64,000 nucleotides of DNA from Pseudomonadota bacterium (GTDB lineage Bacteria > Pseudomonadota > Gammaproteobacteria > Steroidobacterales > Woeseiaceae), in contig JADFHE010000008.1 of the NCBI GenBank assembly GCA_022567295.1, positions 8,113 through 72,112 of the forward strand, written 5' to 3'. A program made the translations under genes and the position numbers. How positions within the stretch are numbered: position 1 is the stretch's first letter; the number at the start of each line of letters is the position of its first letter. Under the pieces are notes generated by a model, which saw only the letters and a list, made by a program, of their open reading frames with translations, had not been told where the DNA came from and searched no databases. Positions 5,524-46,558 of this stretch are shown one piece after another.

Positions 5524-5575
5524 ATCCGTTACCAAACCTCACAGGTCCGTGACATATCGTCGATTGTGCCACACC

Positions 5576-5601: not shown

Positions 5602-5680
5602 AATGAATGACTTTTCGAGACCTGCGAGCTATCCGCTCTGGTAGACGAATCGAAGTTCTTTTTTGACTTAATGTGATCTC

Positions 5681-7159: not shown

Positions 7160-7160
7160 A

Positions 7161-7484: not shown

Positions 7485-7487
7485 GGT

Positions 7488-8860: not shown

Positions 8861-8862
8861 CG

Positions 8863-11629: not shown

Positions 11630-11659
11630 TGAAATTCCTAAAGTTTCTTTTTACTGTTT

Positions 11660-12595: not shown

Positions 12596-12611
12596 AGCGA
12601 AATCACTGGCA

Positions 12612-16289: not shown

Positions 16290-18803
16290 CTAATCTCCGA
16301 ATCTCTGAGTAAATCGAACGCCATACGATCGCGGCCGGTTGGTCATGGTGGTCCAGGCGGTTCCCGGCGGAACGTAGCCCGGAATGGCGGTGCCATAACC
16401 CGGATCAGAGAAATCGATTTCGGCACGCTCATCAAATGCGTTATTGATGAATAACCCGACAGACCAATTGTCCCTTTGGATACCCGCCGATAGATTCACC
16501 AGCGTGTATGCATCCATTTCCCGCCTGGCGGGGACATTTAGCGTATCGAGATCATTCCATCGTTTGCCCGTATAAGATACAGCGGCCTGGAAGAAAGAGG
16601 GCATGGATCCCAATTCGAATTCGCTTCGCCAGATGCCGGTCAACTGCAACTCCGGCACATAGGGCATCGGTGTGCCTGCCGGTGCGTTTGCTGGCTCACC
16701 GGCAACTCGATCATCGTCCGTGCGCCAGAAATCAGTCTCAAGTTCGGCGTCGTTATAGGAGCCTGCGAACGTCAATTCGTTGTTGTCATTGGCTGCAAAA
16801 GTCAGATCCCACTCGAGACCCCTGGTCTGCGAGTTACCGACATTCTGCACAATGGTCAGGTTGGAAACGGTGAAATCGAGGAAGCCAAACTGAAAATTAT
16901 CCCAATCGATAATATAGGCCGCACCGTTGAATCGTAGACGACCATCGGCAAGCAACAATTTCCAGCCGAATTCGTAGTTGGTGACAAAATCAGGATCGTA
17001 CTTGGGGATGCCGGGCACTCGTGCGCGGTTCACACCACCGGCCCGGAACCCTTCGGACCAGGTCACATAAATCATCTTGTCGTCACCAAGGGAATATTCC
17101 GCGTTGATCTTGAAGGCCCAGTCATCGCCCTTGGCCACGTCATCCAGGATTCGGGTGTCGAAGCAGGGATACTGTACTTCACCGCCATCTGCTGCAGGGA
17201 TTACGACAAATACATCGTCAATGTATTGGCCGGTGCAATGCCGGACAAAACCATTAAATCCGTACAGTGAATTCTCGTATTCGAAGTACCGGGCGCCAAC
17301 GGTGGCGGTAACTTTATCGCTGAAGTCATAGGTTAACTCACCGAAAAATGCCGTATCCTCATCGTCACGTACCTGGTACGTCTGCCATACCGTGTTGCCG
17401 CCGAATTTGCGATCACCGGTAGGGGACTCGACCACCGTCAAGTTGGTATCAAGATCTGGGACGATCCACTGCAGGTCAAAATTGTGCTCCTGTGCCTGAA
17501 AAAACGCGCCGGCAATCCACCTCAGGCTAGTGTCCGCCGAGGACTGGAGGCGCAATTCATGGCTCTGGCGCTTGTATTGCTCAAAGCCACCGACATATTG
17601 CGTTCCGATGGCACATTCGTAATAGCCATCCCCTACAGCCCCTACATTTCGATCACTGTAGTAAACGCACCAGGTACCCCCGGAAGTATATTGCGAGTAA
17701 GTGGCCCAGTATTCCGTGTAGTCACTGTAGTCGTACTCACTGATATTTTCCCGATCCAGATAGGCACCCGCATAGACAAGGTCGATATCTCCGATACTGC
17801 CCTCCAGCGTCAGCGTCGCCTGATACCATTCATCATCAGCAAACGCATCCCACATCGCGCCGCTCTGCAAATCGCCCTGATCTTCCGGATTGTGGGCCCA
17901 GGTGCCTTCAATCTTAGAATCCTGGTAAATGATGCCCGGCGTGACTGACCAGTTGTCGTTCAGATCCACTTTCAGCAAGGCACGCAGGCCGGACGTCCTC
18001 ACTGTGTTGTAGTCTTTCCTGGCAAATGCGAAGTTATCTGTCGAAGTGGGCAGCGACCCGGGGCCGGGGAGCCCGGGGCCAATCGGCGTTCCGCCGGGGA
18101 AGTCCATCGTGGCGGGCACCAGATCGATAAAGCCGGCCGTTTCTTTGGTCCAGGCGACCAGCCTGACAGCGGCGCGTTCGCCGATCGGAATATTCCCGAA
18201 ACCGTTCAGGTTGTAGCCCGTGCCACCATCGTCGATTGTGTTGCCTTCAATGTCATAGCCGAATTCGCTTCGACCCATGACCGGCTTGTTGGTAATGATA
18301 CGAATGGTGCCTGACTGGCTGCCCTGGCCATAGAGCGTTCCTTGCGGGCCGGATAACGTCTCGACACGGGCGATGTCGTACATATGGATGTCCAGGATCT
18401 GGTTGATCGTGGTCACCGGTTGTTCGTCCAGGTAAAAGCCAACACTGGGCATGGAAGCGGAGTGGTTGCCGTCGCCGCCGCTCGCGATGCCGCGCATATA
18501 AATCTTGGCATAGCCGGGCCCGGAGGAGTCATAGGAAACGGTAGGCAGCATATCGATGTAATCTTCAAATGACCGGACATTTAGATTTTCCAGTTGCTGG
18601 TTATTCATTACCTGGATTGAAACAGGCACATCCTGGAGATTCTGTTCCCGTTTTGCGGCCGTGACGATAATTTCGTCAAGCATAGCGTCCTGAGCCAGCA
18701 CTGGCGACGCAGCGATTGCGGCTACGGCAGAACCTGCCAGGGCCAAGGAAATTGCTCTTGCCAAGCGATTGCGTTTGAAATTCTTCACGTATTTCCCCTG
18801 CAT
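16290..18803 (-). CDS. TonB-dependent receptor
   Basis: Signal peptide ending AQD, plug motifs LDEIIVTAAKREQNLQDVP and ETLSGPQGTLYG, and a long beta-barrel. Start taken at MQGKYVK; the ORF track extends to 18839. Confidence 0.9.
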   Translation of the reverse strand: MQGKYVKNFKRNRLARAISLALAGSAVAAIAASPVLAQDAMLDEIIVTAAKREQNLQDVPVSIQVMNNQQLENLNVRSFEDYIDMLPTVSYDSSGPGYAKIYMRGIASGGDGNHSASMPSVGFYLDEQPVTTINQILDIHMYDIARVETLSGPQGTLYGQGSQSGTIRIITNKPVMGRSEFGYDIEGNTIDDGGTGYNLNGFGNIPIGERAAVRLVAWTKETAGFIDLVPATMDFPGGTPIGPGLPGPGSLPTSTDNFAFARKDYNTVRTSGLRALLKVDLNDNWSVTPGIIYQDSKIEGTWAHNPEDQGDLQSGAMWDAFADDEWYQATLTLEGSIGDIDLVYAGAYLDRENISEYDYSDYTEYWATYSQYTSGGTWCVYYSDRNVGAVGDGYYECAIGTQYVGGFEQYKRQSHELRLQSSADTSLRWIAGAFFQAQEHNFDLQWIVPDLDTNLTVVESPTGDRKFGGNTVWQTYQVRDDEDTAFFGELTYDFSDKVTATVGARYFEYENSLYGFNGFVRHCTGQYIDDVFVVIPAADGGEVQYPCFDTRILDDVAKGDDWAFKINAEYSLGDDKMIYVTWSEGFRAGGVNRARVPGIPKYDPDFVTNYEFGWKLLLADGRLRFNGAAYIIDWDNFQFGFLDFTVSNLTIVQNVGNSQTRGLEWDLTFAANDNNELTFAGSYNDAELETDFWRTDDDRVAGEPANAPAGTPMPYVPELQLTGIWRSEFELGSMPSFFQAAVSYTGKRWNDLDTLNVPARREMDAYTLVNLSAGIQRDNWSVGLFINNAFDERAEIDFSDPGYGTAIPGYVPPGTAWTTMTNRPRSYGVRFTQRFGD

Positions 18804-18960
18804 CCAACTGTTGATATTGCTGTATCTTAATACTGACAATTATGTGCCATTCGGTTCCAACTGTCTATGAATATAAAGATATATACATGCCAATATGTGG
18901 TATGTACGCCACAATCCGAAATTGCTTCCCGTCCGGGCACATTCATGGATAATGTAATCT

Positions 18961-20979
18961 ATGCCAAAGGCCGATAAACCCGACAGAGCTGACCCGCAGA
19001 TCGCCCTCAAGAATGCGGCTGATCTGCTCGCTCACGATCCGCAGCTGGCCCACGAGCAAGCGCAAGAGATTCTGAAAGTGTATCCCGATACCGTTGCGGC
19101 CAAACGGATACTTGCTACTGCTTTTCGCCTGCAAAAAATGCCGCAAAAAGGGCTGGATGTATTGGCGCCACTGCTTGACGGGCACACCGATTCTCCCGAT
19201 TTTTTGCATGAAATCGCACAATGCCAGGGTGGCGTCGGGCGGGGTGATGATGCCATCACGACCCTGCGAAAAGCGGTCACGATTGACCCGAAGCATGCGG
19301 CGGCCTGGCAAAGCCTCGGCCATCAGTTGGCGGTCGCCGGTGACGAAGACGGCAGCCGCCAGGCTTTTCAACGGCATTTTGAACTCTCCACCCCGCATCC
19401 GGAACTGGTCGAGGCCAGCAGACTGCTGCGTGATGACAAAGTGGGCAAGGCGGAACCCATTGTTCGCGCTTTGCTGAAAAAGCACCCTGCTGACGTGACT
19501 GCCATTCGGGTGCTGGCCGATATAGGCATCAAACTCGGGCAATTGAAAGATGCCAGCCATCTGCTGGAGCGTTGCCTGGAACTGGCGCCGGATTTTCATG
19601 CGGCGAGACACAGCTACGCAATAGTTCTGATGCGCCGGCAGAAGCCGGAGGCTGCCATAGACGAGGCTGAGAAACTACTGGCGCAGGAACCGGACAATCC
19701 CAATTTTCTGACCCTCAAAGCGTACATCCTGAATCGCATCGGGGACCAGTCGGGGGCGCTCGAGATTTACGAAAAAGTACTGAAAGACTACCCCAACCAG
19801 GCCAGGGCCCAGATGAGCTACGGCCACACGCTACATGCAGTCGGAAGGATGGACGAAGCCATCGAGGCCTACAACAAATGCATCCGCCTGAGCCCCGAGG
19901 TGGGCGAAGCCTATTGGAGCCTGGCCAACCTCAAGACCTTCCGCTTCAGTGACGAAGACATCGACAACATGCGCAAGCAGGTAACGACCGAGGGCGGCGA
20001 TGCCGATGACCAGTCGCATCTGGCCTTTGCACTGGGGAAAGCACTGGAGGACCGCAAGGAATACGACGAATCGTTCAAATTTTACGGGCGCGGCAACGCC
20101 ATCCGTCGACTCACGCATCGCCACATCCTTAAAATCAATGTTCTGGATTCACTGCGGCAAGTTCGGGCATTACCGAGGGCGTTCTTTGAGCAACGCAAGG
20201 GTTGGGGTTGCGGCGCGCCGGATCCAATTTTCATCGTCGGTTTGCCACGCGCCGGATCGACCTTGCTGGAGCAGATCCTGGCCAGCCATTCACAGGTTGA
20301 AGGCACAGCTGAACTCATGGACATCATCGCGATTTCGCGCAAGCTGGGCGACAAGAAGCGCGAAAACCCAGCCGGAAAATATCCGGAAGTACTTGCCGAG
20401 CTGACCCAGGACCAGGTCCGGGAGTTGGGCGAGAGTTACCTGGAAACCACCCGCATCCAGCGCACTACTGATGACCCATTTTTTATCGATAAGATGCCCA
20501 ATAATTTCCGGCACATCGGATTGATCCACCTGATTCTGCCCAACAGCAAGATCATCGACGCGAGGCGCCACCCGATGGGCGGCTGTTTTTCCGGCTTCAA
20601 GCAGTTGTTCGCCCGCGGTCAGACTTTCACTTATGGCCTGGAAGACATCGGCAAGTACTACCGTGATTACGCCAGGGTGATGGACCACTGGGACGAGGCG
20701 TTGCCCGGCCGCGTGCACCGCGTGCAGTACGAAGAAATGGTGGCCGACACCGACGCACAAATTCGCGCGCTGCTGGACTATTGCGAACTGGATTTCGAAG
20801 AACAGTGCCTGAGGTTTTACGAAACCGACCGGGCCATACGCACGCCCAGCGCAGAGCAGGTCCGCAAGCCGATCTACAAAGAAGGTCTGGAGCAGTGGCG
20901 AAATTTCGAGGCGCACCTCGATCCGCTCAAGGAAGCGTTGGGGCCGGAGGTCCGGCGGCAGTATTCCATCGATCTCTAA
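18961..20979 (+). CDS. TPR-repeat / sulfotransferase fusion protein (paralogue 1)
   Basis: 672 aa; N-terminal ~330 aa of TPR-like repeats. The C-terminal sulfotransferase domain carries the PAPS 5'-phosphosulfate-binding loop GLPRAGSTLLEQIL and IIDARRHP. No signal peptide. Confidence 0.85.
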   Translation: MPKADKPDRADPQIALKNAADLLAHDPQLAHEQAQEILKVYPDTVAAKRILATAFRLQKMPQKGLDVLAPLLDGHTDSPDFLHEIAQCQGGVGRGDDAITTLRKAVTIDPKHAAAWQSLGHQLAVAGDEDGSRQAFQRHFELSTPHPELVEASRLLRDDKVGKAEPIVRALLKKHPADVTAIRVLADIGIKLGQLKDASHLLERCLELAPDFHAARHSYAIVLMRRQKPEAAIDEAEKLLAQEPDNPNFLTLKAYILNRIGDQSGALEIYEKVLKDYPNQARAQMSYGHTLHAVGRMDEAIEAYNKCIRLSPEVGEAYWSLANLKTFRFSDEDIDNMRKQVTTEGGDADDQSHLAFALGKALEDRKEYDESFKFYGRGNAIRRLTHRHILKINVLDSLRQVRALPRAFFEQRKGWGCGAPDPIFIVGLPRAGSTLLEQILASHSQVEGTAELMDIIAISRKLGDKKRENPAGKYPEVLAELTQDQVRELGESYLETTRIQRTTDDPFFIDKMPNNFRHIGLIHLILPNSKIIDARRHPMGGCFSGFKQLFARGQTFTYGLEDIGKYYRDYARVMDHWDEALPGRVHRVQYEEMVADTDAQIRALLDYCELDFEEQCLRFYETDRAIRTPSAEQVRKPIYKEGLEQWRNFEAHLDPLKEALGPEVRRQYSIDL

Positions 20980-20981
20980 GC

Positions 20982-22595
20982 ATGGATTTGCCTGAATCTC
21001 TGCAGCGGGCATTGCACTATCTGCGAACCGGCTCGCCGGCAGAGTGTGCGGGTGTGTGTGATGAAATCCTGGCCGAGAGTCCGGGGTTGATCCAGGCACT
21101 GTATCTGCGCGGTTGCGCCGCATTTGAGACTGGCGACATCGCCCGGTCGGTCAATGACCTCGAAGCCGTCCATGGCAACCATCCGGAGCACCTGCACGCG
21201 GCCTACAATTTAGGGCGATCTTTGCGGGCAGCGGGCAGGCTTGAGGAGGCGCTGGCGCCACTGCAAGCGGCCCTGGGCGAGGATGAATTCGCAGTGCCTG
21301 CCCGCTACGAACTTGCCACCTGCCTGACTCGGTTGCGGCGCAGGCCCGAAGCTATCGATCACTACCAGGCCATCCTGACGTTGCAGCCTGACAATGCGCA
21401 GGTGGCCGCAAACCTGGCGTCAGTGCTGGAGCGCGAAAACCGACTGGATGAGGCTGAAAGCTGGACAGCCAAGGCGCTGCTGATGGATCCCGTCAATGAG
21501 ACGGCACAAATGACGCGCGCCACGCTGGATCGACGCAGCGGAAAATATCCGGAGGCAGCACAAGGACTCCGCAGTTTGATCCCGGGAATTAACGACCCCA
21601 TCAACCGCAGCATCGCCTGGAATCAGTTGGGTCAGTGCCTGGAAGGCCAGGAGGACTGGGACGAAGCCTTCGATGCGTTCAGTGAATCCAACCGAATCTT
21701 AAAGGAGGGTCACACAGGCTCACTCCCCGACCCGCGTGGCCCGCACGGTCTGCAGACCCTGGCCCGGATTCACGAGTGGCTGCAAGAGAATCCGATGAAA
21801 ACTTGGAAAAAGCCGGCCACTAATGACACCGGCGGTATTGCATTCCTCGTTGGCTTTCCAAGGTCCGGCACCACGTTGCTGGATCGCATGCTCTGGGCTC
21901 ACCCGGAAGTCGAAGTACTGGAAGAAAAAAGCCTGTTCTCCTCGCTTCACCAGGACTGGGCGGAGCCCGGTACACTGGAGGCGCTGGCCGACCTCAACGA
22001 CGCGCAGATTACTGACGCCCGTAAAATATACCGACGGGAAATGTCACGCCACCGGCGTCAACCGCAACGCTCCCTTGTGATTGACAAATTGCCGCTGAAT
22101 CTGGCCTACCTTTTCCTGATTCACCGGTTGTTTCCGGAAGCGCCGGTGATATTTCTATTGCGCCACCCCATGGATGTCTGCATCAGCTGTAATTTTCAGG
22201 CTTTTGAGCTTGAAGCATCAATGGCCTACTTTCTCGATATCCAACAGACTGCGCAGTATTACGATGCTGTTATGCAAGTGGCGGTGCCGTCCATGGAGCA
22301 GATCGACAATCCACTGCACCAATTACGTTACGAAGATCTGGTGGCCGAGCCGCAACACCAGCTTGCGCCATTGCTTAGTTTCCTTGCTCTGGAAAGCCAC
22401 GATTCGATGCTGGAATACCGTCATCAGGGCGGCGGCGAAACAAGCAATACTCCCAGCTACCAACAGGTGGCGCAGCCACTGCATACCCGATCGATTGGCA
22501 GGTGGCGGCACTACTCAAGACAGCTTGAATCCAGTCTTTCGATCCTGCAACCATGGGTCAAGCGGTTTGGATATCAGAAAACGAACAGCGCTTAA
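20982..22595 (+). CDS. TPR-repeat / sulfotransferase fusion protein (paralogue 2, more divergent)
   Basis: Start at MDLPESLQ, 2 nt after the paralogue-1 stop (the ORF track's upstream extension overlaps paralogue 1). TPR repeats followed by GFPRSGTTLLDRML and LLRHPMD. Confidence 0.8.
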   Translation: MDLPESLQRALHYLRTGSPAECAGVCDEILAESPGLIQALYLRGCAAFETGDIARSVNDLEAVHGNHPEHLHAAYNLGRSLRAAGRLEEALAPLQAALGEDEFAVPARYELATCLTRLRRRPEAIDHYQAILTLQPDNAQVAANLASVLERENRLDEAESWTAKALLMDPVNETAQMTRATLDRRSGKYPEAAQGLRSLIPGINDPINRSIAWNQLGQCLEGQEDWDEAFDAFSESNRILKEGHTGSLPDPRGPHGLQTLARIHEWLQENPMKTWKKPATNDTGGIAFLVGFPRSGTTLLDRMLWAHPEVEVLEEKSLFSSLHQDWAEPGTLEALADLNDAQITDARKIYRREMSRHRRQPQRSLVIDKLPLNLAYLFLIHRLFPEAPVIFLLRHPMDVCISCNFQAFELEASMAYFLDIQQTAQYYDAVMQVAVPSMEQIDNPLHQLRYEDLVAEPQHQLAPLLSFLALESHDSMLEYRHQGGGETSNTPSYQQVAQPLHTRSIGRWRHYSRQLESSLSILQPWVKRFGYQKTNSA

Positions 22596-22866
22596 AGCGC
22601 CAGTTAGAAGCCCGGCACATGGCCGGACTTTCGGTTTCCTGGCAGCAATCTTCAGGTGCGATCTCTGTGAAGTGCAAACTGACGATCTTCCATCAAGGCA
22701 CGCCGTGAATACAGTCCACCCCGACGCGCGAAGCGAGGACAGGCCGAATGCCCATCTCCCCAGCCTGACCAATTCAAAATAAGCAAAATCGTCGTTGTTA
22801 GTGGATCGCGGTCTGGAGAGACTCCTGATAAGCCACGTCATGCCAATCGGCAGGTCAAACCTATTT

Positions 22867-23784
22867 TCACACTTCGCGGAGGCTGAATCCGTGTTCGCGT
22901 TCCAACAAAGCAGCCAGTTCATGCCCAGCCGTTGCCGACATCGCAGTCAGTGGTGGGCGGACATTGGCCCACCGCTCGTCACCGGTGGCGATTGCGAGCA
23001 GACGCTTCTGCGCCGGGATCGGGGAATACTCCTGCAACGTTAGCCGCAATCGCTTGACGGTCTCGTGCTGCGCTTCCGCTGCAGCGTGGTCACCGTCAAC
23101 ATGTAATTCTACGACCTTGACGATGTTGCCCGCATTGACGTTGGCGGTTGCCGTGATGCAACCCGGGGAGCCAAGCGCCAACGCCTCAAGTAGCGGCAAT
23201 TCCGATCCTGGATAAACAACTAAGCCGTCAATATCAAGCAGCGCCCGCGTATTATTCCAATCGCCGGAACTGTCCTTGATGCCGACGATCTGATCCGGGA
23301 ACGCCGCGTGCAGTCGCGAGGCCAGCGTTGGCGGCACACCAACAATGGCGACCGGTGGAATGTGGTACAGATAGATGCACGCGTCCTGTCCGATCGCTGC
23401 AATCAATTGCTCAAAGTAGTTAAAGAGCCCGTCTTCGGAAACGTCCTTGTAATAAAACGGCGGCAAAGTCAGCACGCCAGCACAGCCCATGTCGAGACAA
23501 GCGCGCGATAATCGGGCAGTGTCCGCCACATTTGACAATCCGGTACCCGGAATCAATCGCTTCGGGTCGATGCCACTGTCAATTAAATCCTCAATCGCGG
23601 CGATCCGTTCGTCTATGCCAACTGACAAGGCTTCGCCTGTCGTGCCGAACGGCGCGATGCCAGCGCAGCCCTGCTCAATCAGCCATTTCGCATGAGCGAC
23701 ATAAAGATGGGTTGCCACCAGGAAGTTATCGTCGAACGGCGTCAAAATCGGCGCAATAATGCCGCGAATTTTCTCGACCGTCAT
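22867..23784 (-). CDS. Dihydrodipicolinate synthase/N-acetylneuraminate lyase-family class I aldolase
   Basis: 305 aa; GIIAPILTPF, GTTGEA and the Schiff-base lysine context GIKDSSGD. AGGAA RBS upstream. Confidence 0.8.
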   Translation of the reverse strand: MTVEKIRGIIAPILTPFDDNFLVATHLYVAHAKWLIEQGCAGIAPFGTTGEALSVGIDERIAAIEDLIDSGIDPKRLIPGTGLSNVADTARLSRACLDMGCAGVLTLPPFYYKDVSEDGLFNYFEQLIAAIGQDACIYLYHIPPVAIVGVPPTLASRLHAAFPDQIVGIKDSSGDWNNTRALLDIDGLVVYPGSELPLLEALALGSPGCITATANVNAGNIVKVVELHVDGDHAAAEAQHETVKRLRLTLQEYSPIPAQKRLLAIATGDERWANVRPPLTAMSATAGHELAALLEREHGFSLREV

Positions 23785-23977
23785 CCAGTCAATTTCCTAA
23801 CACGACACGCAATTATTGTTGTTGTTGGCACCTTCGATCACATGAACAAGGCAACGAGGGTCTAATAATATCGCAGTCCGGGTCGATTTGGCAGACGTCG
23901 GCCGTATCGTTATTTACGATCATCGAGTAATCAATCGACATATGTTCGGGGTTCGTGCTGCGAATAATCCGAATTGC

Positions 23978-25147: not shown

Positions 25148-26220
25148 GCCCGCATCTCGACGCTCAGCCACCAGTGTCGCTTGCCGCCCGCCTCGAGCCA
25201 GGGCACCGCATTATTTTCGATTGCCTGGTTGACGCAGTCGTAGGGACTTGTTGCAGGCTCGAAGCCAAGATTCCTGTAGGGCTCCGAGCCACAGCCCGAC
25301 CAGCCCCGATTGTTGATCCACAGACCGAGCCACGGCAGTTCGATTGGATCGAACCTGAAGGTCAGCTGCGCGCCGCTATTGCCCACCAAGACGCTCGCGA
25401 TTCCTGTCGCCGGTGAGCGAACAAAAATTTTACTCACCAACAAGCGTTGCGCTCCATTGACGGCGAAGCTGCGGGACAGGTCGACCGATCTGCCGTCTTG
25501 CAGATGAAGATGTGGCCACTGTTGCGCTATACCGCCGTCCAACAGTTTTCGGGTCGCGTTATCCTCAACACGCAGCGGCAAATCGCCTTGCAAATCGATG
25601 CGTGCATCGGACTCGACGGCCAGTAACGCATGCGCGCACCAATAGCATGGCAGTGGCTCATCACCGTCATTGATCAGCGAATAGTCCAGTTCGATGACCG
25701 GCTCGCCGTTCGGCAAGCGTATCCGGCGCCGGAATCGATAGGGAGCAGCGGTGCCGAGCGCAGTCATGTCGCAGACGACGTCTCCGGCCGCCGTCACCCG
25801 CAGATCTGCAACGGACCATTCACAGCCGACTAGGTCGCCGTGGTCCGGGACCGCGCGAATCTGATGGTTCGCCAAGCGAATCTTTCCGGGCTTGATCGAC
25901 AGCAACACCTCGTCCCAGCCGCCGGAATCGTGGTCTCGACTGAAGTCGGCGTCACTGCTTGGTCTCGAGAGCGGAATATGGGGGTTTTGCCACAGCCAGT
26001 TGCGGCCACTGCGCCGGTCGACCATTTCGATAATCTTGCCGCCGACGGCAGGCGCGATCGCGAGATCCACACAGTCATTTTGCAGGCGAATGATGTCCAG
26101 CCCGCCGCCGGACAGATCCTGTCGATAGCTGCTCACCGGTGATTGTCCAGGCTGATTTCCGACATTCTTCCTAGCATAAGCATCATCCGGAGCCTTTGAA
26201 AATGGACATTTAATGCGCAA
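25144..26220 (-). CDS. Aldose 1-epimerase (galactose mutarotase)-like fold protein
   Basis: 358 aa; VGGKIIEM..GRNWLW, PDHGDL, YSLINDGDEPLPCYWCAH and LGFEPAT follow the mutarotase-family motif order. The start is uncertain: TTG at 26220, or GTG near 26136. Confidence 0.55.
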   Translation of the reverse strand: MRIKCPFSKAPDDAYARKNVGNQPGQSPVSSYRQDLSGGGLDIIRLQNDCVDLAIAPAVGGKIIEMVDRRSGRNWLWQNPHIPLSRPSSDADFSRDHDSGGWDEVLLSIKPGKIRLANHQIRAVPDHGDLVGCEWSVADLRVTAAGDVVCDMTALGTAAPYRFRRRIRLPNGEPVIELDYSLINDGDEPLPCYWCAHALLAVESDARIDLQGDLPLRVEDNATRKLLDGGIAQQWPHLHLQDGRSVDLSRSFAVNGAQRLLVSKIFVRSPATGIASVLVGNSGAQLTFRFDPIELPWLGLWINNRGWSGCGSEPYRNLGFEPATSPYDCVNQAIENNAVPWLEAGGKRHWWLSVEMRA

Positions 26221-26262
26221 TGATGGATATTCTTACGAAAATCTAAAACACGGTAATGCAGC

Positions 26263-27162
26263 GTGGCAGACAGCAAACTCAAACTTCGTGAGGGCTTCGC
26301 AGGTCAGGACATGTTCGTGATCCCACGCCCCGCGCTGGCACATGCGAAGCAACACCCGCTGGTACGCTCTGTCTATCCGACCGACATTGGCTGGTTCCCG
26401 ACAGCGGCCCACCATTACCGTGACCGGCCCAACGGGGCCAGACAGGATCACCTGATGATGTGCGTGGGCGGCCACGGCTATGTCGTCGTGAATGGCCAGA
26501 AGGCCCACCTGCAAGCTGGCGAAATGCTGATCGTCCCAAGGAAAACGCAGCACACTTACTGGGCGGCGGACGATGATCCCTGGTCTATTTACTGGGTGCA
26601 TTTTCTGGGGGAAGACATCGACTACTTTGTCGAACGCATCCCCAGAGTGGGCCAGCCTGTGCCGATCGAGGCCTCGGCACAGAGCGAAGCTGTGCGGCTG
26701 TTCCGCTACTGCCTGGATGCGTTACATGATGGCTACGGACTTCCAACCCTGATTTACGCCGCTCAATCTACGCAACACATATTGTCGCTTTTGCTGTACC
26801 GCAATCAGTCGCTACCCATGGAGCCGCGCTCCGGCAAACGACGCTCGAGCCTGGAATCTGTTGTTGAATACATGCAGCTCAACCTGGACTCGCCCCTGCG
26901 CCTTCAGGATTTTGCTCAGGAGGCCGGCATGTCGGTCAGTCACTTCTCGGAAATCTTCCGTGCACAGACGGGACAATCACCCGTGGCGTATTTCATCCAA
27001 CTACGGATGCGGCTGGCCTGTCGCCTGTTGGACCTGAGCGTCAAACCAATCAAGACGATCGCCCTGGAAACCGGTTATCGTGATCCGTACTATTTTTCGC
27101 GGGTTTTCAAGAATTCCATGGGTATTGCCCCGGGCAAGTACCGCGACATCAAGAAGGGCTGA
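26263..27162 (+). CDS. AraC-family transcriptional regulator (cupin sensor + HTH)
   Basis: 299 aa; N-terminal EGFAGQDMFVIPRP cupin-type domain; C-terminal AraC HTH (LQDFAQEAGMSVSHFSEIFRAQTGQSP ... GYRDPYYFSRVFK). Confidence 0.85.
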   Translation: MADSKLKLREGFAGQDMFVIPRPALAHAKQHPLVRSVYPTDIGWFPTAAHHYRDRPNGARQDHLMMCVGGHGYVVVNGQKAHLQAGEMLIVPRKTQHTYWAADDDPWSIYWVHFLGEDIDYFVERIPRVGQPVPIEASAQSEAVRLFRYCLDALHDGYGLPTLIYAAQSTQHILSLLLYRNQSLPMEPRSGKRRSSLESVVEYMQLNLDSPLRLQDFAQEAGMSVSHFSEIFRAQTGQSPVAYFIQLRMRLACRLLDLSVKPIKTIALETGYRDPYYFSRVFKNSMGIAPGKYRDIKKG

Positions 27163-27395
27163 ACCAGCGAATATTCCAATTTTACAGTGTGAAATACCAT
27201 AAGACAAAGCTACAGGCCTATAGGCTAGGCAAAAATCGCACGCTCGCAACGTTGTCATTTTCCGGAAGATCGTCCATCAATCAGTAGCAACATCCATTGA
27301 GCTACTAACAATCACATGCCACTATCTGCCATGAGTGTAAGGTCGTTCTCTGCGGCGACATAGAATCAACGTCATCTTGATCGGGGGATCTGCAC

Positions 27396-29915
27396 ATGAC
27401 TCATGCAAACCGGCGTACCGCCAAGCATGGTATATCGAACGCTCAATCATCCAAGAGAATTTTTTCGTTGACGCCGCTGGCAGCGGCTATTGTTGCTACG
27501 CTGGGCCCCGCAGGGCCTGCGCTAGCTCAGGAGTCCAAGACGCTCGACGAGATCATCGTTACCGCGACCAAGCGCGAAATAAACCTACAGGATGTGCCCC
27601 ACAGTATCGACGTATTGTCGGCTAGCGATCTTGCGAGAATGGGCGCCAGAGATTTGCAAGCGACGCTCAGAGCATTTCCCAGCGTTACTCTCACCGCCAT
27701 GATGCCCGGGCAGAACTCACTGGTCATCCGTGGCATTTCCACGGGACCGTTCGAGTATCGCACCGAGGCCCAGGTCGCCGTCTATCTCGACGAGCAACCG
27801 TTTACCTTCAATTCGCAGCAGGTTGGAATCCGCAATATCGATATGGCTCGAGTTGAACATCTGCCGGGGCCGCAGGGCACGCTGTTTGGCTCCAGCTCAC
27901 AAACCGGCACTATTCGCTACATTACCAACAAACCAAATATGAGCGCGTTTGGCGGACAGGTGGAAGGCCGCTATGGCATTACCTCCGGCGGCGAAGACAG
28001 CTACGAAATAAACGCTATTTTAAATATTCCGGTCAGTGATTCCCTGTCTTTGCGCGTGGTTGGGTATTCCTCCCATGACGGGGGCTATGTCGACAACGTC
28101 TTCGGCACGAGTTTTTCCGGCAATTACGACAACGCGAATCTCGTCGAGGATGACTTCAACGAATACGACGTAGACGGCGGTCGTCTCCACGTACTGTGGA
28201 ATATCAGTGACGATTGGTCGGCCTTGTTGACCGTGAGCGCCGAGAACACCGACGCCTTCGGCGTCTGGGACAGTGATGAGGCTCTGGGCGACTACAAGGT
28301 CACGCGGTTTGAGGAAGAGTTCCGCACGGACGACTGGGTCGCAACATCTCTCACGTTGGATGGCGACCTTGGTTTCGCCGACTTGTCGTTTAATGCGAGC
28401 AAGTTTGAGCGCGACATTGTCTACGAATACGACAACATGACGTACTCCCAGTGGAAGGACGCGTACTGGGGATCCGTTTACCCTTTGTATAACACCAATT
28501 ACTATAGAAGCATCGTTTTCAACGATCAGATACAAGAGCGTGAGTCGATGGAGCTGCGCCTGGCCTCGAGTGGCGACAGCCGTCTGCAATGGATGCTGGG
28601 CGCCTATTACGAAGACATCATTGACGAGTGGTATTACGGCGCCAGGCTGCCCGACTATATGAACACGTCGTCGTGGGCCTATGCGAACTCTTATTACGCC
28701 TATGTCGCTAACAACTTTGGATTTTATAACTACGACTGCGCCTGCTACGAGACCAATCCCAACGTGGCGTACCCGCTTGCGCCAACCGATATCGGTTTCT
28801 CCAATACGCTGGACCGTTCTATCGCACAAACCGCTCTGTTTGGCGAGCTGAGTTTTGACCTGACGGATGAATTGACCATTCACGGCGGAATTCGCTGGTC
28901 TGAATACGATCGCGATATCTACAGCCGGTTCGCATTCCCGGAGGGCTTACCTCCTTATTCGGATTTGATTTTAGGAAACGACGGATCGTTCAGAGATATC
29001 GGCAAGGTCGACGACATGATTTACAAAGTCGGCATCAAGTACAACCTGGACGACGATCGAATGATCTATGGCTTGTTCAGCCAGGGATTCAGGCTGGGCG
29101 GCTTCAACAACCAACGCGCAGTCAGCACTGGACGATTGCCAGCGCGGTATGGCCCGGATTATCTCGACAATTACGAGCTTGGCATCAAGAGCAGATGGTT
29201 TGGTAACCGATTGACAATTAACGCCGACTTTTTCTTCATGGAGTGGACCGACTACCAGCAGGGGGCGGATCTTGGCCAATGGTGGATGAGGGGCAACGTT
29301 AATGCCGGTGACGCCGAAACCAAGGGTATCGAAGTACAAGCCGAATGGCAGGCCACGGACAACTTGGCCTTGTCCCTGAACTTTTTTGTTGCAGACGCGA
29401 AGTTTAGCGACAACTTCTGCAATGACTATGTAGATAACGTGCACTTCGACTGCGTCATTGATGGCAATGGGGAAGCCGTATGGGCCAATGACCCATCCGA
29501 GCCGGCGGACATAGTGACCGGTATGAAGATGCCGAATTCCCCGAAGTCGACTGCCCACGCGAGTATCTACTACACGATGCCCGACGTACTCGGCGGCGAC
29601 CTCTGGTTTTATTACGACATTAGCTATAGCGCCGAGATATGGAATTCACTTAGCTCCATTCGCGGTAACAACAGGAACGGCATAGCACCCTCCTGGACTT
29701 ACAGCTCATTCTCGACCGGCCTGCAATTGCCAAACCAGCTCGATGTCGAACTGAATGTGAGAAATCTGTTCGACCAGTCAGGCTATAGCTATGTGGGGAC
29801 TTGGGAAGCCGGTAATGCAGAACTATTTGGTGATCCTCGCTACGCCAGAATAAGGGCACAGGACCGACCCCGCTCAATCTGGCTGACCCTGCGGAAAGGG
29901 TTCGGCGGCACATAG
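27396..29915 (+). CDS. TonB-dependent receptor
   Basis: 839 aa; signal peptide ending LAQE; plug motifs LDEIIVTATKREINLQDVP and EHLPGPQGTLFG. Paralogous to the receptor at 16290-18803. Confidence 0.9.
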   Translation: MTHANRRTAKHGISNAQSSKRIFSLTPLAAAIVATLGPAGPALAQESKTLDEIIVTATKREINLQDVPHSIDVLSASDLARMGARDLQATLRAFPSVTLTAMMPGQNSLVIRGISTGPFEYRTEAQVAVYLDEQPFTFNSQQVGIRNIDMARVEHLPGPQGTLFGSSSQTGTIRYITNKPNMSAFGGQVEGRYGITSGGEDSYEINAILNIPVSDSLSLRVVGYSSHDGGYVDNVFGTSFSGNYDNANLVEDDFNEYDVDGGRLHVLWNISDDWSALLTVSAENTDAFGVWDSDEALGDYKVTRFEEEFRTDDWVATSLTLDGDLGFADLSFNASKFERDIVYEYDNMTYSQWKDAYWGSVYPLYNTNYYRSIVFNDQIQERESMELRLASSGDSRLQWMLGAYYEDIIDEWYYGARLPDYMNTSSWAYANSYYAYVANNFGFYNYDCACYETNPNVAYPLAPTDIGFSNTLDRSIAQTALFGELSFDLTDELTIHGGIRWSEYDRDIYSRFAFPEGLPPYSDLILGNDGSFRDIGKVDDMIYKVGIKYNLDDDRMIYGLFSQGFRLGGFNNQRAVSTGRLPARYGPDYLDNYELGIKSRWFGNRLTINADFFFMEWTDYQQGADLGQWWMRGNVNAGDAETKGIEVQAEWQATDNLALSLNFFVADAKFSDNFCNDYVDNVHFDCVIDGNGEAVWANDPSEPADIVTGMKMPNSPKSTAHASIYYTMPDVLGGDLWFYYDISYSAEIWNSLSSIRGNNRNGIAPSWTYSSFSTGLQLPNQLDVELNVRNLFDQSGYSYVGTWEAGNAELFGDPRYARIRAQDRPRSIWLTLRKGFGGT

Positions 29916-29938
29916 TCAAGCTTGTAGCAAGCTCGGTT

Positions 29939-30838
29939 GTGCGCGGCAGCCACCAGGGCGACAGTCATGGTGGCGTCTACCTGATCGATCTTGAACACCA
30001 AACCGTTGAACAGTCGCTCGACTGGAACACCACCGACATCGATTGGCAGGGCCGCGGATGGGACCGCGGCCTGCGCGGTATTGCCTTTGACGATGACAGA
30101 ATCTATATCGCCGCAAGCGATGAACTATTCGCCTACACGCCCGATTTCAAGTTGGTTGATTCCTGGCGCAGCCCATACCTAAAGCACTGTCATGAAATCG
30201 CCGTGTTCGAGCGCACATTGTATTTGACCTCAACCGCGTATGACAGCATTCTGGGCTTTCATCTCGATAAGCACCGCTTTCACTGGGCCATGCACGTTCA
30301 GACGGCCAATTACCGATTCAATGCCGCAAGCTTTGATCCGATGTCGGATGAAGGTCCATTGATGCTGAACAAATTGCACATCAACAATGTGTTTTGTTCC
30401 GAACACGGAATGTATATTTCCGGGCTAAAAACTGGCGGCATGCTGCACTTCAACGGCAAGGACATACTCATGGCGGTACAAATGCCGCCCGGTACCCACA
30501 ATGCCCAGCCATTCCGGGACGGCGTGTTATTCAATGACAGCAACGACGACGTGTTGCGCTACACCGGCCGTGGTGAAGGCGAGGAAGACCGGGCCATGTT
30601 GGTTCCCACCTACGACCCAACTGAATTGCAACACTTGGATGCAGCGGATGACGAGGTCGCACGACCTGGATTTGCCCGTGGCCTCTGTGTTCTGTCCGAT
30701 CGAATTGTCGCAGGGGGGTCCTCGCCGTCTACCATTACCGCGTATGACCTGGAGGCGAATGAAATGCTGATTTCGGTCAACTTGAGCATGGACGTACGCA
30801 ACGCCATTCACGGACTCGAGATATGGCCATTTAACTGA
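29939..30838 (+). CDS. Hypothetical protein, possibly DUF4915/TIGR03032-like beta-propeller (recognised from memory only)
   Basis: 299-aa ORF starting (GTG) 23 nt after the receptor stop. No signal peptide. Repeated strand-like segments; PGFARGL motif near the C-terminus. Confidence 0.55.
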   Translation: MRGSHQGDSHGGVYLIDLEHQTVEQSLDWNTTDIDWQGRGWDRGLRGIAFDDDRIYIAASDELFAYTPDFKLVDSWRSPYLKHCHEIAVFERTLYLTSTAYDSILGFHLDKHRFHWAMHVQTANYRFNAASFDPMSDEGPLMLNKLHINNVFCSEHGMYISGLKTGGMLHFNGKDILMAVQMPPGTHNAQPFRDGVLFNDSNDDVLRYTGRGEGEEDRAMLVPTYDPTELQHLDAADDEVARPGFARGLCVLSDRIVAGGSSPSTITAYDLEANEMLISVNLSMDVRNAIHGLEIWPFN

Positions 30839-32852
30839 GTCCGGCGTTTCTTGACACCTCGGGCAACTCGTCAATGATATAGCCAAGCTGGTCAAGCCAT
30901 AGGTCCAGGTGTTGCTCGTAATGACGCCACTTTCCAAGGGCACCGGTGTAAATGGGCTGTCGCACCTGCTCCGAACTCGCCGTCTTGACTGGCCGTTCCG
31001 TTTCATGAAAGCGCACGCAGCTCTCCTCAAACGCTAAACCGCAATGATCCAGGATGCGCCGCACCTGGCCCTCCAAATCGGTCACCGTTTCCTCGTAGTG
31101 CACATCCAGCACCTTGCCGGGTAGCACCTCGTGCCAGTGCTTCATGATCCTGTCATATTGCTGGTAGTAGTGAGCAAGATCCAACATGTCGTAAGTGAAG
31201 TTTTGACCTGCACCGAACAACTGTTTATAGGCACCCAGGCAACTGTCAAAGGGATGCCGGCGAGCATTAATGACTTTCACATTGGGAAGTATGAGGTGAG
31301 CAAAGCCCACCAACGGAAAATTGTTGGGTAGCTTGTCTGAAAAAAACGGTTTTTGTGTTAGCCGATGCCTCTGACTCTCTTCAATATATTGCTTGCCATA
31401 GGCGCGCAAGTCCTTGTCCCGTAGATCTTTGATCGCCTCTGGATAACGAACGCCGTCGGTTCTGTATCGTCCGATCGACTCCGCAATTTTGTTCAGCAGC
31501 GGTAATTCCGACGTGCCTTCTACCTGGCTATGGCTCGCAAGAATCTGTTCCACCAATGTTGATCCAGAGCGCGGCAGGCCGACGATGAGGATCGGGTCGG
31601 GCGCATCGTAGCCGACGCCCGCTCGCTCGTTCATCAACTGTCGATCAAACACGGTTTTAATTGCTGTTTGGCGCTTCTCGATATCGAGGGGATCGTACTC
31701 CACTATCATGCGCTGGCGCTGGTTACCGCTGTGATAAAAGTGCCAGGCTTGTTCATAATCCTCTTTGTCTTCCATCGCCTTGCCCAAGGCAAAGCGAAGA
31801 TGAACATCTTCGACATCCGTCAGGTCGTCGCGCTCCAGTTGTTGCAGCATGTTTTCGATTTCTTCATCTGAAAAATTGAAGATCTTGAGATTTGCCATGC
31901 TCCAGTAGACCTGACCGAAGTTCGGTTTGGCTTTGATCGCACGTCGATAGGCTTTGACCGCACCGTCCTGATCGCCGACGGTCTTCAGCTCCCAGGCATA
32001 CGCTGCCATTACGCTTGGCGTACCGTCATCGATTGCAAATGATCTTTCGTATGCCTGCACAGCCTTTTCGGGATACATAGCACGGCCGAGAGCACTGCCC
32101 AGACCCGCCCAGGCGCGCGCGTTCCTGGGTTCGAGTTCCGTCGCTTTTTGATATGTTGCAACAGCATCCATGAACTTATTCATGTCGAGCAGCAACGCGC
32201 CAAGAGTTAGCCACGCTTCGGTAAAGTCTACGGCCGTCTGTGTGGCGCGCCGCAACAACGCCTCCGCGTCTTCCAGCCGTTTCTTGTCATGCCAGAAGGA
32301 CAAGGCCAGGTGACGCATCGCGTTGACATTATTGGGGTTCCCTTTGAGCACGTCGCGAAATACCGCCAAGGCCTCATCAAGCTTATCGGCCTGCTTGAAT
32401 TCAATGCCCTTGATGATGGCAGCGCGCTCAGGGTCAGAGTCCCTGTAATCTTTAAACGCTTCAGCGGCATCTTCGCCCCGGCCAACGGCAGTCAGCGCCT
32501 GACCCAGTTTTTTCTGCGCCAGCGGCAATGCGGGCTGCAGCGCAATCGCCTTTTCGAATTCGGGCACAGCCTCCTCAAACCTGGACTGCATTACAAGCGC
32601 GCTGCCCAGGTCTTCATATAACTGCGGGAAATCGGCATTCAGGGAGAGCGCAAAACGCAATTGCTCCTCTGCCTCTACCGCACGATTCTGCTTCATCAGT
32701 GCCAGGCTGAGCAGGCGAATATGATCGGCGCATCCTGGATGCTTATTGAGATAGTCTCGGCACGCCTCCTCGGCGCGAAGCGGCCGGTTGCGCTTCAGGA
32801 ACTCAAGCGCCCGCTGTATGTTTGCATTCTTTTCGGGTACCGCCTGATTCAT
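30831..32852 (-). CDS. TPR-repeat / sulfotransferase fusion protein (paralogue 3)
   Basis: 673 aa, collinear with paralogue 1: VYWSMANLKIFNFSDEEIENM vs AYWSLANLKTFRFSDEDIDNM; GLPRSGSTLVEQILASHSQVEGTSEL vs GLPRAGSTLLEQILASHSQVEGTAEL; INARRHP. Confidence 0.85.
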   Translation of the reverse strand: MNQAVPEKNANIQRALEFLKRNRPLRAEEACRDYLNKHPGCADHIRLLSLALMKQNRAVEAEEQLRFALSLNADFPQLYEDLGSALVMQSRFEEAVPEFEKAIALQPALPLAQKKLGQALTAVGRGEDAAEAFKDYRDSDPERAAIIKGIEFKQADKLDEALAVFRDVLKGNPNNVNAMRHLALSFWHDKKRLEDAEALLRRATQTAVDFTEAWLTLGALLLDMNKFMDAVATYQKATELEPRNARAWAGLGSALGRAMYPEKAVQAYERSFAIDDGTPSVMAAYAWELKTVGDQDGAVKAYRRAIKAKPNFGQVYWSMANLKIFNFSDEEIENMLQQLERDDLTDVEDVHLRFALGKAMEDKEDYEQAWHFYHSGNQRQRMIVEYDPLDIEKRQTAIKTVFDRQLMNERAGVGYDAPDPILIVGLPRSGSTLVEQILASHSQVEGTSELPLLNKIAESIGRYRTDGVRYPEAIKDLRDKDLRAYGKQYIEESQRHRLTQKPFFSDKLPNNFPLVGFAHLILPNVKVINARRHPFDSCLGAYKQLFGAGQNFTYDMLDLAHYYQQYDRIMKHWHEVLPGKVLDVHYEETVTDLEGQVRRILDHCGLAFEESCVRFHETERPVKTASSEQVRQPIYTGALGKWRHYEQHLDLWLDQLGYIIDELPEVSRNAGLS

Positions 32853-32870
32853 GAAAATTGTTCCAACAGC

Positions 32871-33437
32871 TCAAGCTTGCGTATTCGGCAGCTGGTCGGC
32901 TGGTACGTAGTCAAAAATAAAGGAAATACGATCCTCGCTCCCCATGTTAATCACGCTATGTTTTTTCTGGTTGTTCAGTTCATAGGCTTTACCAACCTCA
33001 AACGCATATGGCTTGCCGTCGATCGTAAAACGAACAGCCGCATTGGTCGTAATCGGTACATGGATGCGATGCCCCATGTGGAAGGAGCGCAACATGTCGC
33101 GATGCGGATGGATGCGGCCCTGAACTTTTAATTTCGCCGCCATCGCCCGAAGTAGCGTGCCGCCCGGCGCGTAATAGGTTTCGATAATGTGGTCGATCAG
33201 GGGCATGGCGACATCGGCCAGCCTATCCCAACCTGGTTCCCTGTAGATATCTCCGCCGTTCGGCCAACTCTCGTCGCAGAACAACATGACGATCGACTCG
33301 GTATCTTTATGCACTTCGTAGGTTTGCTGTCGTACTGCCTGTTCGGTCCAGGCTTCCGGCTCCTGAGCTAAAATCCTTTCGCTCAGAGCCTGCACGTCAA
33401 CTTCTCCGAGACATCGTTGCGCGCCTTCGATATCCAT
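32871..33437 (-). CDS. Aspartyl/asparaginyl beta-hydroxylase-family (cupin, Fe2+/2-oxoglutarate dioxygenase-like) protein
   Basis: 188 aa; HPHRDMLRSFHMGHRIHVPI and KKHSVINMG motifs are typical of the Asp_Arg_Hydrox family. Lies 18 nt upstream of sulfotransferase paralogue 3 on the same strand. Confidence 0.7.
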   Translation of the reverse strand: MDIEGAQRCLGEVDVQALSERILAQEPEAWTEQAVRQQTYEVHKDTESIVMLFCDESWPNGGDIYREPGWDRLADVAMPLIDHIIETYYAPGGTLLRAMAAKLKVQGRIHPHRDMLRSFHMGHRIHVPITTNAAVRFTIDGKPYAFEVGKAYELNNQKKHSVINMGSEDRISFIFDYVPADQLPNTQA

Positions 33438-38676: not shown

Positions 38677-38697
38677 TTTCTCTCGAAGCCAAACTAG

Positions 38698-46540: not shown

Positions 46541-46558
46541 TTGGGAGTAGATTTCCCT

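Follow-up and report, generated by a model that had tools for sequence, protein, structure and literature searches.

TPR-fused sulfotransferases encoded beside TonB-dependent receptors as possible cytoplasmic modifiers of bacterial surface proteins

A 17-kb region on a Woeseiaceae contig (JADFHE010000008.1, assembly GCA_022567295.1) encodes three proteins in which a tetratricopeptide repeat (TPR) array is fused to a sulfotransferase domain (ST1, ST2 and ST3), together with two TonB-dependent receptors (TBDR_A and TBDR_B), a small cupin of the Asp/Asn beta-hydroxylase family (HYD) and a beta-propeller protein. The region lies within a stretch of 64,000 nt, referred to here as the window, whose genes are defined by an open reading frame (ORF) map and by Pfam and NCBIfam scans. 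An earlier note on this DNA treated the region as one single locus; it is instead composed of two independent conserved modules split by unrelated sugar genes. The TPR-sulfotransferases (TPR-STs) are proposed, at a rough probability of 0.45, to be cytoplasmic protein sulfotransferases, each dedicated to a neighbouring surface protein: the TPR domain would dock on the precursor of that protein, which would be modified before export. The acceptors in the window would be the two adjacent TonB-dependent receptors (TBDRs). The members of the two modules, which the ORF map and Pfam place where the earlier note had located them, are as follows.

TBDR_A, 16290-18839, minus strand: TonB-dependent receptor of module 1, with Pfam Plug and TonB_dep_Rec_b-barrel domains and a signal peptide; orthologues adjoin ST1 orthologues in the 80 related loci L001-L080.
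ST1, 18961-20979, plus strand: predicted cytoplasmic TPR-sulfotransferase; Pfam PF13469 (Sulfotransfer_3), E 2.6e-50, and TPRs.
ST2, 20982-22595, plus strand: shorter, divergent TPR-sulfotransferase; PF13469, E 1.1e-32, and TPRs; found in close relatives only.
TBDR_B, 27396-29915, plus strand: TonB-dependent receptor of module 2, with Pfam Plug and barrel domains.
Beta-propeller protein, 29909-30838 (ATA start, 309 aa) or 29939-30838 (GTG start, 299 aa), plus strand: core part of module 2, matching no Pfam or NCBIfam family.
ST3, 30831-32852, minus strand: TPR-sulfotransferase of module 2; PF13469, E 1.3e-46, and TPRs; convergent with the propeller gene.
HYD, 32871-33437, minus strand: soluble 188-aa Fe(II)/2-oxoglutarate-type cupin of the Asp/Asn beta-hydroxylase family, accessory to module 2; Pfam PF05118 (Asp_Arg_Hydrox), E 1.2e-10.

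The pairing of receptor and sulfotransferase in module 1 recurs across two classes of Proteobacteria. With the ST alignment as query, a search in which a single genome stands for each species recovers 80 loci containing 91 ST genes, with gene boundaries given as longest-ORF estimates. The hosts are Gammaproteobacteria (Woeseiaceae, Lysobacterales, Steroidobacteraceae, Halieaceae, Microbulbifer, Arenicella, Thalassomonas) and Alphaproteobacteria (Caulobacterales, Sphingomonadales, Hyphomonas, Hellea, Phenylobacterium). A TBDR gene is located at most 500 bp from the ST for 73 of the 91 ST genes, and five further STs lie at contig ends. The 73 pairs adopt three arrangements: divergent (16), TBDR then ST (28) and ST then TBDR (29). 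Upon clustering of all 1010 genes in the 80 loci, the ST appears in 73 loci and the TBDR in 60, and a third family never exceeds 10 loci; genes for scaffold biosynthesis, a precursor, an exporter or an inner-membrane transporter are not conserved in these clusters. The two partners also diversify together. Among 100 ST/TBDR pairs, the pairwise identities of the STs follow those of the TBDRs with r = 0.93 (Mantel 0/999), and for 97 of 98 pairs the ST and its TBDR belong to the same half of an ancient A/B paralogue split. Shared species history inflates r, yet it cannot yield the congruent paralogue split.

Module 2 is defined by a metagenome search seeded with the propeller protein, which returns another 80 loci; the counts refer to loci with room for the neighbour in question. 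A co-directional TBDR gene stands directly upstream of the propeller gene in 59/67 informative loci, and a convergent TPR-ST gene follows downstream in 66/71. HYD precedes the module 2 ST directly in 17/37 informative loci and occurs elsewhere in the locus in three more. Because of these counts, the propeller protein is a core part of module 2 and HYD is accessory. The propeller protein, listed in the earlier note as hypothetical, is the most constant partner of TBDR_B and ST3. Linkage in other genomes, as the earlier note required of its proposal, is strong for the receptor (73/91 and 59/67) and partial for the hydroxylase. The four-gene block, in which TBDR_B and the propeller gene converge with HYD then ST3, is preserved exactly around three HYD homologues with unrelated flanks. 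HYD lies directly upstream of an ST in L081-L084 as well, and the alphaproteobacterium Asticcacaulis carries TBDR, Sulfotransfer_2, hydroxylase and TPR-ST genes in this order.

The enzymes retain the features expected of active sulfotransferases. The PF13469 scores of ST1, ST2 and ST3 are 172, 114 and 160 bits against a cut-off of 27. ST1 and ST3 are collinear, as previously described, with 37% identity across 652 aa, and ST2 shares 23-25% identity with either. In ST1, a TPR array of ~400 aa, with Pfam TPR matches at residues ~70-330, is followed by the sulfotransferase domain at residues ~420-660; the best natural PDB match of the array is the TPR superhelix with which OGT binds its protein substrates (E about 5e-25). 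The 5'-phosphosulfate-binding (5'-PSB) loops reported before, PRAGST in ST1, PRSGTT in ST2 and PRSGST in ST3, are seen intact in the alignment, and R430, E451, K511, R536 and S630 (ST1 numbering) are invariant across the three paralogues. In protein-tyrosine sulfotransferases (TPSTs), the positions aligned with R430, E451, K511 and S630 fall in the motifs PRSG, GEE, NKDP and RSTDQV, and their equivalents in TPST2 are the catalytic residues R78, E99, K158 and S285. The 3'-phosphate-binding Arg R536 (within ARRHP or LLRHP) is aligned to the TPST 'RDGR'. Towards the C-terminus, an S-x-x-Q-V-x-x-P-I...W motif (R-S-T-D-Q-V-I-K-P-I...W, including the catalytic Ser) is common to the STs and the TPSTs. 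In sequence searches, the solved structures nearest to the ST domain are the CurM sulfotransferase (E 6e-8) and the OLS sulfotransferase (E 1.8e-6), followed by TPST1/2 (E 1e-4 to 2e-3). The profile hidden Markov model and the alignment agree that the C-terminal domains are sulfotransferases with intact residues for binding 3'-phosphoadenosine-5'-phosphosulfate (PAPS), as the earlier note had claimed. Since the PAPS-binding and catalytic positions are invariant despite paralogue identities of only 23-37%, the conservation pattern points to catalysis, and the three sulfotransferases are predicted to be catalytic. Sequence and hydropathy checks reveal neither a signal peptide nor a membrane segment in ST1, ST2, ST3, HYD or the 299-aa propeller protein, and ST1-ST3 are judged by sequence to be cytoplasmic.

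The ST domain belongs to a very large family, comprising 26,100 clusters (50% identity) at E <= 1e-3 and 10,505 at E <= 1e-30. Among the matches listed, most of the top members are 600-680 aa long with the ST domain at the C-terminus. Some representatives (P0361-P0375) extend to 1000-2800 aa with two to six sulfotransferase domains, and may be multi-domain fusions or assembly artefacts. ST2 orthologues trail ST1 in L001-L003.

Outside the receptor-linked loci, the neighbours of the wider TPR-ST family vary, as seen in 16 annotated plasmid or chromid contexts picked by hand.

TBDR adjacent to the TPR-ST, 4/16: Asticcacaulis, Novosphingobium and two Pseudoalteromonas.
TBDR 2 kb from the TPR-ST, 1/16: Komagataeibacter.
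Autotransporter beside the TPR-ST, 5/16: Enterobacter sp. 638, Pacificitalea, Thalassospira, Azospirillum and Ralstonia.
Porin beside the TPR-ST, 1/16: Cereibacter.
Flagellin, divergent, beside the TPR-ST, 1/16: Paroceanicella.
Giant cadherin adhesin and type-I secretion genes around the TPR-ST, 1/16: Comamonas.
Metalloprotease beside the TPR-ST, export not established, 1/16: Sphingomonas aerolata.
No surface-protein neighbour of the TPR-ST, 2/16: Roseibium and Methylovirgula.

The common denominator of these neighbours is an exported surface protein, whichever export route it takes, and not a transported ligand. A shared transported ligand would not account for such varied partners, but a protein substrate encoded in cis would, and it ranks above a small-molecule substrate mainly for this reason. 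On the Ralstonia solanacearum megaplasmid CP023017.1 (L168, 2690-10398), an autotransporter gene (PF03797, E 2e-61), a TPR-ST gene, a gene for a 372-aa protein without family match and an adenosine-5'-phosphosulfate (APS) kinase fusion form one string. Several distant TPR-STs are flanked by glycosyltransferase genes, annotated as GT8 in Enterobacter (where Pfam finds TPR only), GT9 in Azospirillum and GT-A in Komagataeibacter; the Azospirillum gene, of the heptosyltransferase family GT9, itself contains TPR.

Culturable carriers of such genes are Novosphingobium pentaromativorans US6-1 (pLA3), Pseudoalteromonas, Asticcacaulis sp. DW145, Microbulbifer and Lysobacter brunescens, and for the autotransporter version Ralstonia solanacearum. 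Several of these contexts carry further details. The Ralstonia ST is matched at equivalent positions in 15 megaplasmid records, the gene context being taken from CP023017.1 alone, and the passenger repeats of its autotransporter resemble those of the Enterobacter and Thalassospira autotransporters, which are likewise encoded beside TPR-STs. On a Comamonas endophytica plasmid (L173, 1-11620), an 878-aa TPR-ST is encoded between a giant cadherin-domain adhesin and TolC, ABC and HlyD type-I genes. On a Paroceanicella profunda plasmid (L178, 3343-6353), a family ST gene diverges from a flagellin gene within a flagellar cluster; by analogy with the glycosylation of flagellin by FlmG, this arrangement could serve flagellin sulfation.

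Both receptors contain a PF07715 plug and a PF00593 barrel, and TBDR_A and TBDR_B are 29% identical. Each begins with a hydrophobic, signal-peptide-like segment, ending in AQD or AQE; judging from its homologues, TBDR_A probably starts at an internal ATG near 18803. Only the plug domain aligns with solved structures, and the loop topology, as read from the pattern of short turns and long loops, is a sequence-based prediction. TBDR_A carries an acidic tyrosine cluster, EYDYSDYTEYW (window 17729-17749; TBDR_A residues 364-384), which has a counterpart at residues 343-350 of TBDR_B and opens a long Tyr-rich segment with two Cys, probably an extracellular loop. In each of the two ST-paired receptor families, the conservation of D370 and Y374 reaches at least 97%, in a comparison where every TBDR is either paired or at a contig end. 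This cluster and its D370/Y374 motif were considered as a tyrosine-sulfation site but are given here as an observation only, because the comparison covers such receptors alone and the autotransporter partners are poor in Tyr and acidic residues.

The propeller assignment of the 299-aa protein, for which the earlier note had the words 'propeller-like', is upheld by an AlphaFold2 (AF2) model, an all-beta propeller with pLDDT 76 and pTM 0.79, and by Foldseek, which matches the model to generic WD40-like propellers at a TM of about 0.5. Such generic matches lend no support to an arylsulfotransferase-like or lactonase-like enzyme. Its 5,665 homologues include no named protein. The window protein has no match to DUF4915 (PF16261), a family of similar length. 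Two homologues, P0269 and P0339, show collinear sub-threshold DUF4915 matches at residues 244-281 (E 0.06 and 0.19; 11-13 bits against a cut-off of 35), and a remote kinship of the two families may exist. The homologues begin MVKLV..., and the window counterpart reads IVKLV from the ATA at 29909, overlapping the TBDR_B stop (window 29905-29915, ACATAGTC). The gene probably starts at this ATA. The alignment would fit a rare ATA start, translationally coupled, or else a shortened protein beginning at GTG 29939.

HYD matches PF05118 with 41.9 bits against a cut-off of 22.6, the match covering the C-terminal half of the profile only. H112-x-D114, H160 and R170, the metal and 2-oxoglutarate ligand set, are invariant in 26 aligned homologues. 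A PDB sequence search with HYD returns nothing, and the AF2 model is poor (pLDDT 49). Membership in the Asp/Asn beta-hydroxylase family, as proposed earlier, therefore stands; the accompanying analogy to the lipid hydroxylases LpxO and OlsC, which are members of the Asp_Arg_Hydrox family, proves weak. HYD shares with human AspH and bacterial LpxO and OlsC the PF05118 match and the conserved metal-binding His residues and Arg, but it is a soluble protein of 188 aa with neither a membrane segment nor TPR, its maximum Kyte-Doolittle 19-residue mean of 0.65 indicating no hydrophobic segment. Lipid hydroxylation of the LpxO/OlsC type is rejected, given the lack of a membrane anchor and of lipid-synthesis genes nearby.

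In the proposed mechanism, the receptor precursor is synthesised in the cytoplasm, where the ~400-aa TPR superhelix of the cognate enzyme would bind it in a still-unfolded state. The TPST-like domain would then move sulfate from PAPS onto hydroxyl side chains of Tyr, Ser or Thr. In module 2, HYD might add a hydroxyl group, either as the modification itself or as a new site for sulfation, and the propeller protein might act as an adaptor or as a further enzyme; both roles are speculative. The modified precursor would finally leave via Sec and insert in the outer membrane, steps that are established for TBDRs generally. The earlier statement that no acceptor substrate is visible is then probably wrong, as the comparative context points to the adjacent receptors. 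Its companion statement, that the window holds no exporter or PAPS-synthesis gene, agrees with the Pfam and NCBIfam scans, which detect neither (ABC exporters included) in the 64 kb. A tentative generalization extends the proposal to the whole family: before they export their own surface proteins, Gram-negative bacteria may sulfate them in the cytoplasm and, in some modules, also hydroxylate them. TBDRs, autotransporters, porins, flagellins and type-I-secreted adhesins would be among the targets, and the enzymes would form a very large family of TPR-fused TPST-like proteins, every one of which co-evolves with a substrate encoded next to it.

From its genomic context, the system would be of the kind in which a dedicated cytoplasmic enzyme modifies an exported protein, here with TPST-like chemistry. 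In Xanthomonas, the cytoplasmic enzyme RaxST sulfates RaxX, a secreted peptide encoded nearby, and HMW1C is a dedicated cytoplasmic modifier that acts on the adjacent exported protein before its export by Sec. The STs share with TPST1/2 and RaxST the family PF13469 and an alignable PSB loop, catalytic Glu, Lys and Ser, 3'-phosphate-binding Arg and C-terminal motif, and the Comamonas TPR-ST sits inside a type-I-secretion operon reminiscent of raxST-raxABC. The similarity is nevertheless weak (E 1e-4 to 2e-3), TPSTs and RaxST lack a TPR array, and instead of short acidic peptides the STs would act on Sec-exported beta-barrel receptors of 840 aa. No ABC exporter of a RaxST-RaxX-RaxABC system is encoded in the window or conserved in the related loci, small ORFs not having been searched exhaustively.

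The domain architecture has its counterpart in FlmG, whose N-terminal TPR domain binds flagellins and whose C-terminal transferase modifies them in the cytoplasm (PMC7591256). Like FlmG and OGT, the STs are two-part proteins, with roughly 300-400 aa of N-terminal TPRs ahead of a C-terminal transferase in one soluble polypeptide; they differ in that the catalytic domain is a PAPS sulfotransferase and not a glycosyltransferase, and substrate binding by their TPR domain is putative. TibC and Aah are dedicated cytoplasmic enzymes that heptosylate autotransporters encoded beside them, ahead of export by Sec (PMC4358343). As with TibC/Aah (BAHT) and HMW1C, the modifier gene of the TPR-ST systems stands beside that of an outer-membrane or secreted protein, and TPR-STs occur by autotransporters in five lineages, but the modification would be sulfation in place of glycosylation, the fold is another one, and the partner in the window is a TonB-dependent receptor. 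CurM and OLS provide the best solved-structure matches and have the PSB loop, catalytic Glu and D-K-x-P motif in common with the STs; they are, however, megasynthase domains acting on carrier-protein-bound beta-hydroxyacyl chains, and their alignment ends before the TPST-like C-terminal motif. The window encodes no synthase or carrier protein.

Hydroxylase and sulfotransferase genes have been linked before. In the relevant passages of Iyer, Abhiman, de Souza and Aravind (2010), operons combining the two are described and hydroxylation followed by sulfation is proposed (PMC2938197). The same passages share with the present system a TonB-type receptor together with soluble enzymes of peptide-modifying type, and beta-hydroxylase-family dioxygenases linked to sulfotransferases (PMC2938197). 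They differ in favouring a small secreted metabolite for the receptor-linked clusters, and they make no mention of a TPR fusion, a beta-propeller partner or a one-to-one receptor pairing (PMC2938197). Tryptophan halogenase, SapC, JmjC-type cupin, phytanoyl-CoA hydroxylase, collagen-like and tail-collar proteins are found neither in the window nor in the conserved clusters of the 80 loci.

A number of points weigh against receptor precursors, or surface proteins at large, as the acceptors. To our knowledge, neither sulfation nor hydroxylation of a TonB-dependent receptor has been reported. No common acceptor motif is found across the partner proteins, the autotransporter partners are Ser/Thr-rich and poor in Tyr and acidic residues, and the D370/Y374 motif of the receptors may be structural, not a modification site. 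ST2 has no receptor of its own. The set of 16 contexts is small, its plasmid gene tables are incomplete, and Roseibium and Methylovirgula offer no surface-protein neighbour. The closest solved sulfotransferase, that of CurM, acts on an acyl chain tethered to a carrier protein, with the TPSTs in second place. Co-diversification, moreover, would equally arise between receptors and enzymes that share a specific ligand as their substrate.

This last point bears on the alternative in which the enzymes handle a small molecule, either a secreted sulfated or hydroxylated ligand of siderophore or signal type that the receptor takes back up, or an imported compound sulfated inside the cell. Receptor genes often adjoin genes that make or process their ligands, methanobactin clusters pair a sulfotransferase with a TonB-dependent receptor, the CurM domain itself belongs to a polyketide pathway, and the AraC, galactokinase-like and DUF4432 genes by TBDR_B suggest a sugar substrate. 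A role of this kind was also predicted for TonB-receptor neighbourhoods with halogenases, SapC and JmjC hydroxylases in the corresponding part of Iyer et al. 2010 (PMC2938197). What makes this plausible alternative the less likely one is that no scaffold, precursor, exporter or inner-membrane importer gene is conserved with the pair in the 80 loci, that a TPR array of ~400 aa is unusual for a small-molecule sulfotransferase, and that the family also has neighbours which import no ligands, namely autotransporters, a porin, a flagellin and a type-I-secreted adhesin; nor is there an obvious benefit from PAPS spent on an imported nutrient. A siderophore cluster or a cluster for a ribosomally synthesised and post-translationally modified (RiPP) metallophore, such as methanobactin with MbnS, is likewise set aside, as only the receptor and the ST are conserved across the 80 loci, to which module 2 adds the propeller protein and the hydroxylase.

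Sulfation or hydroxylation of an envelope glycan or lipid (lipopolysaccharide, capsule or a surface-protein glycan), with the receptor link reflecting co-regulated envelope remodelling, is improbable. The glycosyltransferase neighbours in Enterobacter, Azospirillum and Komagataeibacter, the presence of LpxO and OlsC in the family of HYD, and the added Sulfotransfer_2 gene of Asticcacaulis, whose family often acts on glycans, would all fit it. No glycosyltransferase, lipid-synthesis or polysaccharide-export gene, however, belongs to the window modules or is conserved in the 160 related loci, HYD lacks the membrane segment of LpxO and OlsC, and a general envelope modification should not co-diversify one-to-one with a particular receptor. 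A mainly non-catalytic role, in which the proteins would serve the neighbouring outer-membrane protein as chaperones, targeting factors or regulators and the ST fold would sense a nucleotide, is very improbable. TPR and beta-propeller domains are classic protein-protein scaffolds, and tight gene spacing suggests co-expression in matched amounts; the invariance of the PAPS-binding and catalytic positions among such divergent paralogues, the full metal and cosubstrate set of HYD and the APS kinase in the Ralstonia gene string all speak for catalysis.

The remaining features of the 17-kb region lie between and around these genes.

Divergent intergenic region between TBDR_A and ST1, 18840-18960, no strand: read off the sequence; promoter-like matches at chance level.
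Genes for a DHDPS-family lyase, a galactokinase-like GHMP kinase and a DUF4432 (aldose-epimerase-like) protein, 22867-26220, minus strand: assigned by Pfam to sugar catabolism, between the modules.
AraC-family regulator gene upstream of TBDR_B, 26263-27162, plus strand: NCBIfam AraC match; a recurrent neighbour of module 2, not part of its core.

The DHDPS-family, galactokinase-like and DUF4432 genes are missing from most related loci, for which reason the whole 17-kb span is rejected as one functional unit. AraC homologues with 64-80% identity adjoin the TBDR_B homologue in L083, L133, L147 and L164, GalK-like homologues are found nearby in L083, L132, L133 and L164, and DUF4432-like ones in L083, L084 and L164. 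The recurrence of these genes beside TBDR_B hints that the receptor is part of a sugar regulon. The close gene spacing noted earlier is confirmed: ATG of ST2 lies 2 nt after the ST1 stop, and 18 nt separate the HYD stop from the ST3 start. The convergent ST3 and propeller genes overlap by 8 nt. The earlier note's divergent promoter, shared by TBDR_A and ST1/ST2, is not demonstrated, as the matches of a promoter consensus scan of the intergenic region are no better than chance; a terminator scan is at chance level as well. Shared regulation of TBDR_A and ST1 would follow from their divergent arrangement only.

Elsewhere in the window, a dense run of peptidase genes at 179-14663, just upstream of module 1, encodes a tricorn-like S41 protease (1087 aa), an S33 alpha/beta hydrolase, an M18 aminopeptidase and an S9 prolyl-oligopeptidase with PD40 repeats, which fits a proteolytic lifestyle. 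At 5681-10230, a 492-aa protein without Pfam match keeps a LysR regulator, a two-subunit CoA-transferase and a class-III aminotransferase as neighbours in a distant contig (L081, 2544-6773); the block resembles a conserved catabolic operon, with the 492-aa protein as its one unknown component. A copper-resistance cluster at 36127-39321 (CopA-like multicopper oxidase, CopB and a c-type cytochrome) adjoins the ST locus and is unrelated to it. At 44876-49269, a GMC oxidoreductase, a TauD/TfdA-family dioxygenase and a fusion of 3-hydroxyacyl-CoA dehydrogenase with thioesterase are encoded in one string, which resembles a catabolic set of carnitine or betaine type.

The individual parts are ordinary members of known families, namely TBDR, Sulfotransfer_3, TPR and Asp_Arg_Hydrox. 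Full-text searches outside subscription-only papers, for sulfotransferases with TonB, TPR, autotransporter or hydroxylase, return no description of the TPR-ST family or of the propeller family, nor a published characterisation that would overturn the earlier view that the combination has no assigned function. The nearest published idea is the hydroxylate-then-sulfate proposal in the passages of Iyer et al. 2010 cited above, made for different operons. The co-evolution of the TPR-ST family with partner receptors in the outer membrane, the four-gene module that includes an unnamed propeller protein and the wider adjacency of TPR-STs to surface-protein genes all appear to be undescribed.

In many marine and soil bacteria, polymers, vitamins and metals enter mainly through TonB-dependent receptors, which phages and bacteriocins also use for entry. 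If receptors are indeed sulfated or hydroxylated before export, this would constitute a new kind of protein modification in outer-membrane biology, and models of receptor-ligand and receptor-phage recognition would change. Bacterial protein sulfation would then reach far past the single RaxX case. Sulfated receptors would be an unrecognised but widespread modification in marine and soil Proteobacteria and would parallel, in bacteria, the way eukaryotes combine tyrosine sulfation and Asp/Asn hydroxylation on extracellular proteins. Should the product be a small sulfated ligand, the two-gene module would instead be the signature of a large class of unknown metabolites. In either case, the module is simple, with two to four genes, and is found in culturable, genetically tractable bacteria.

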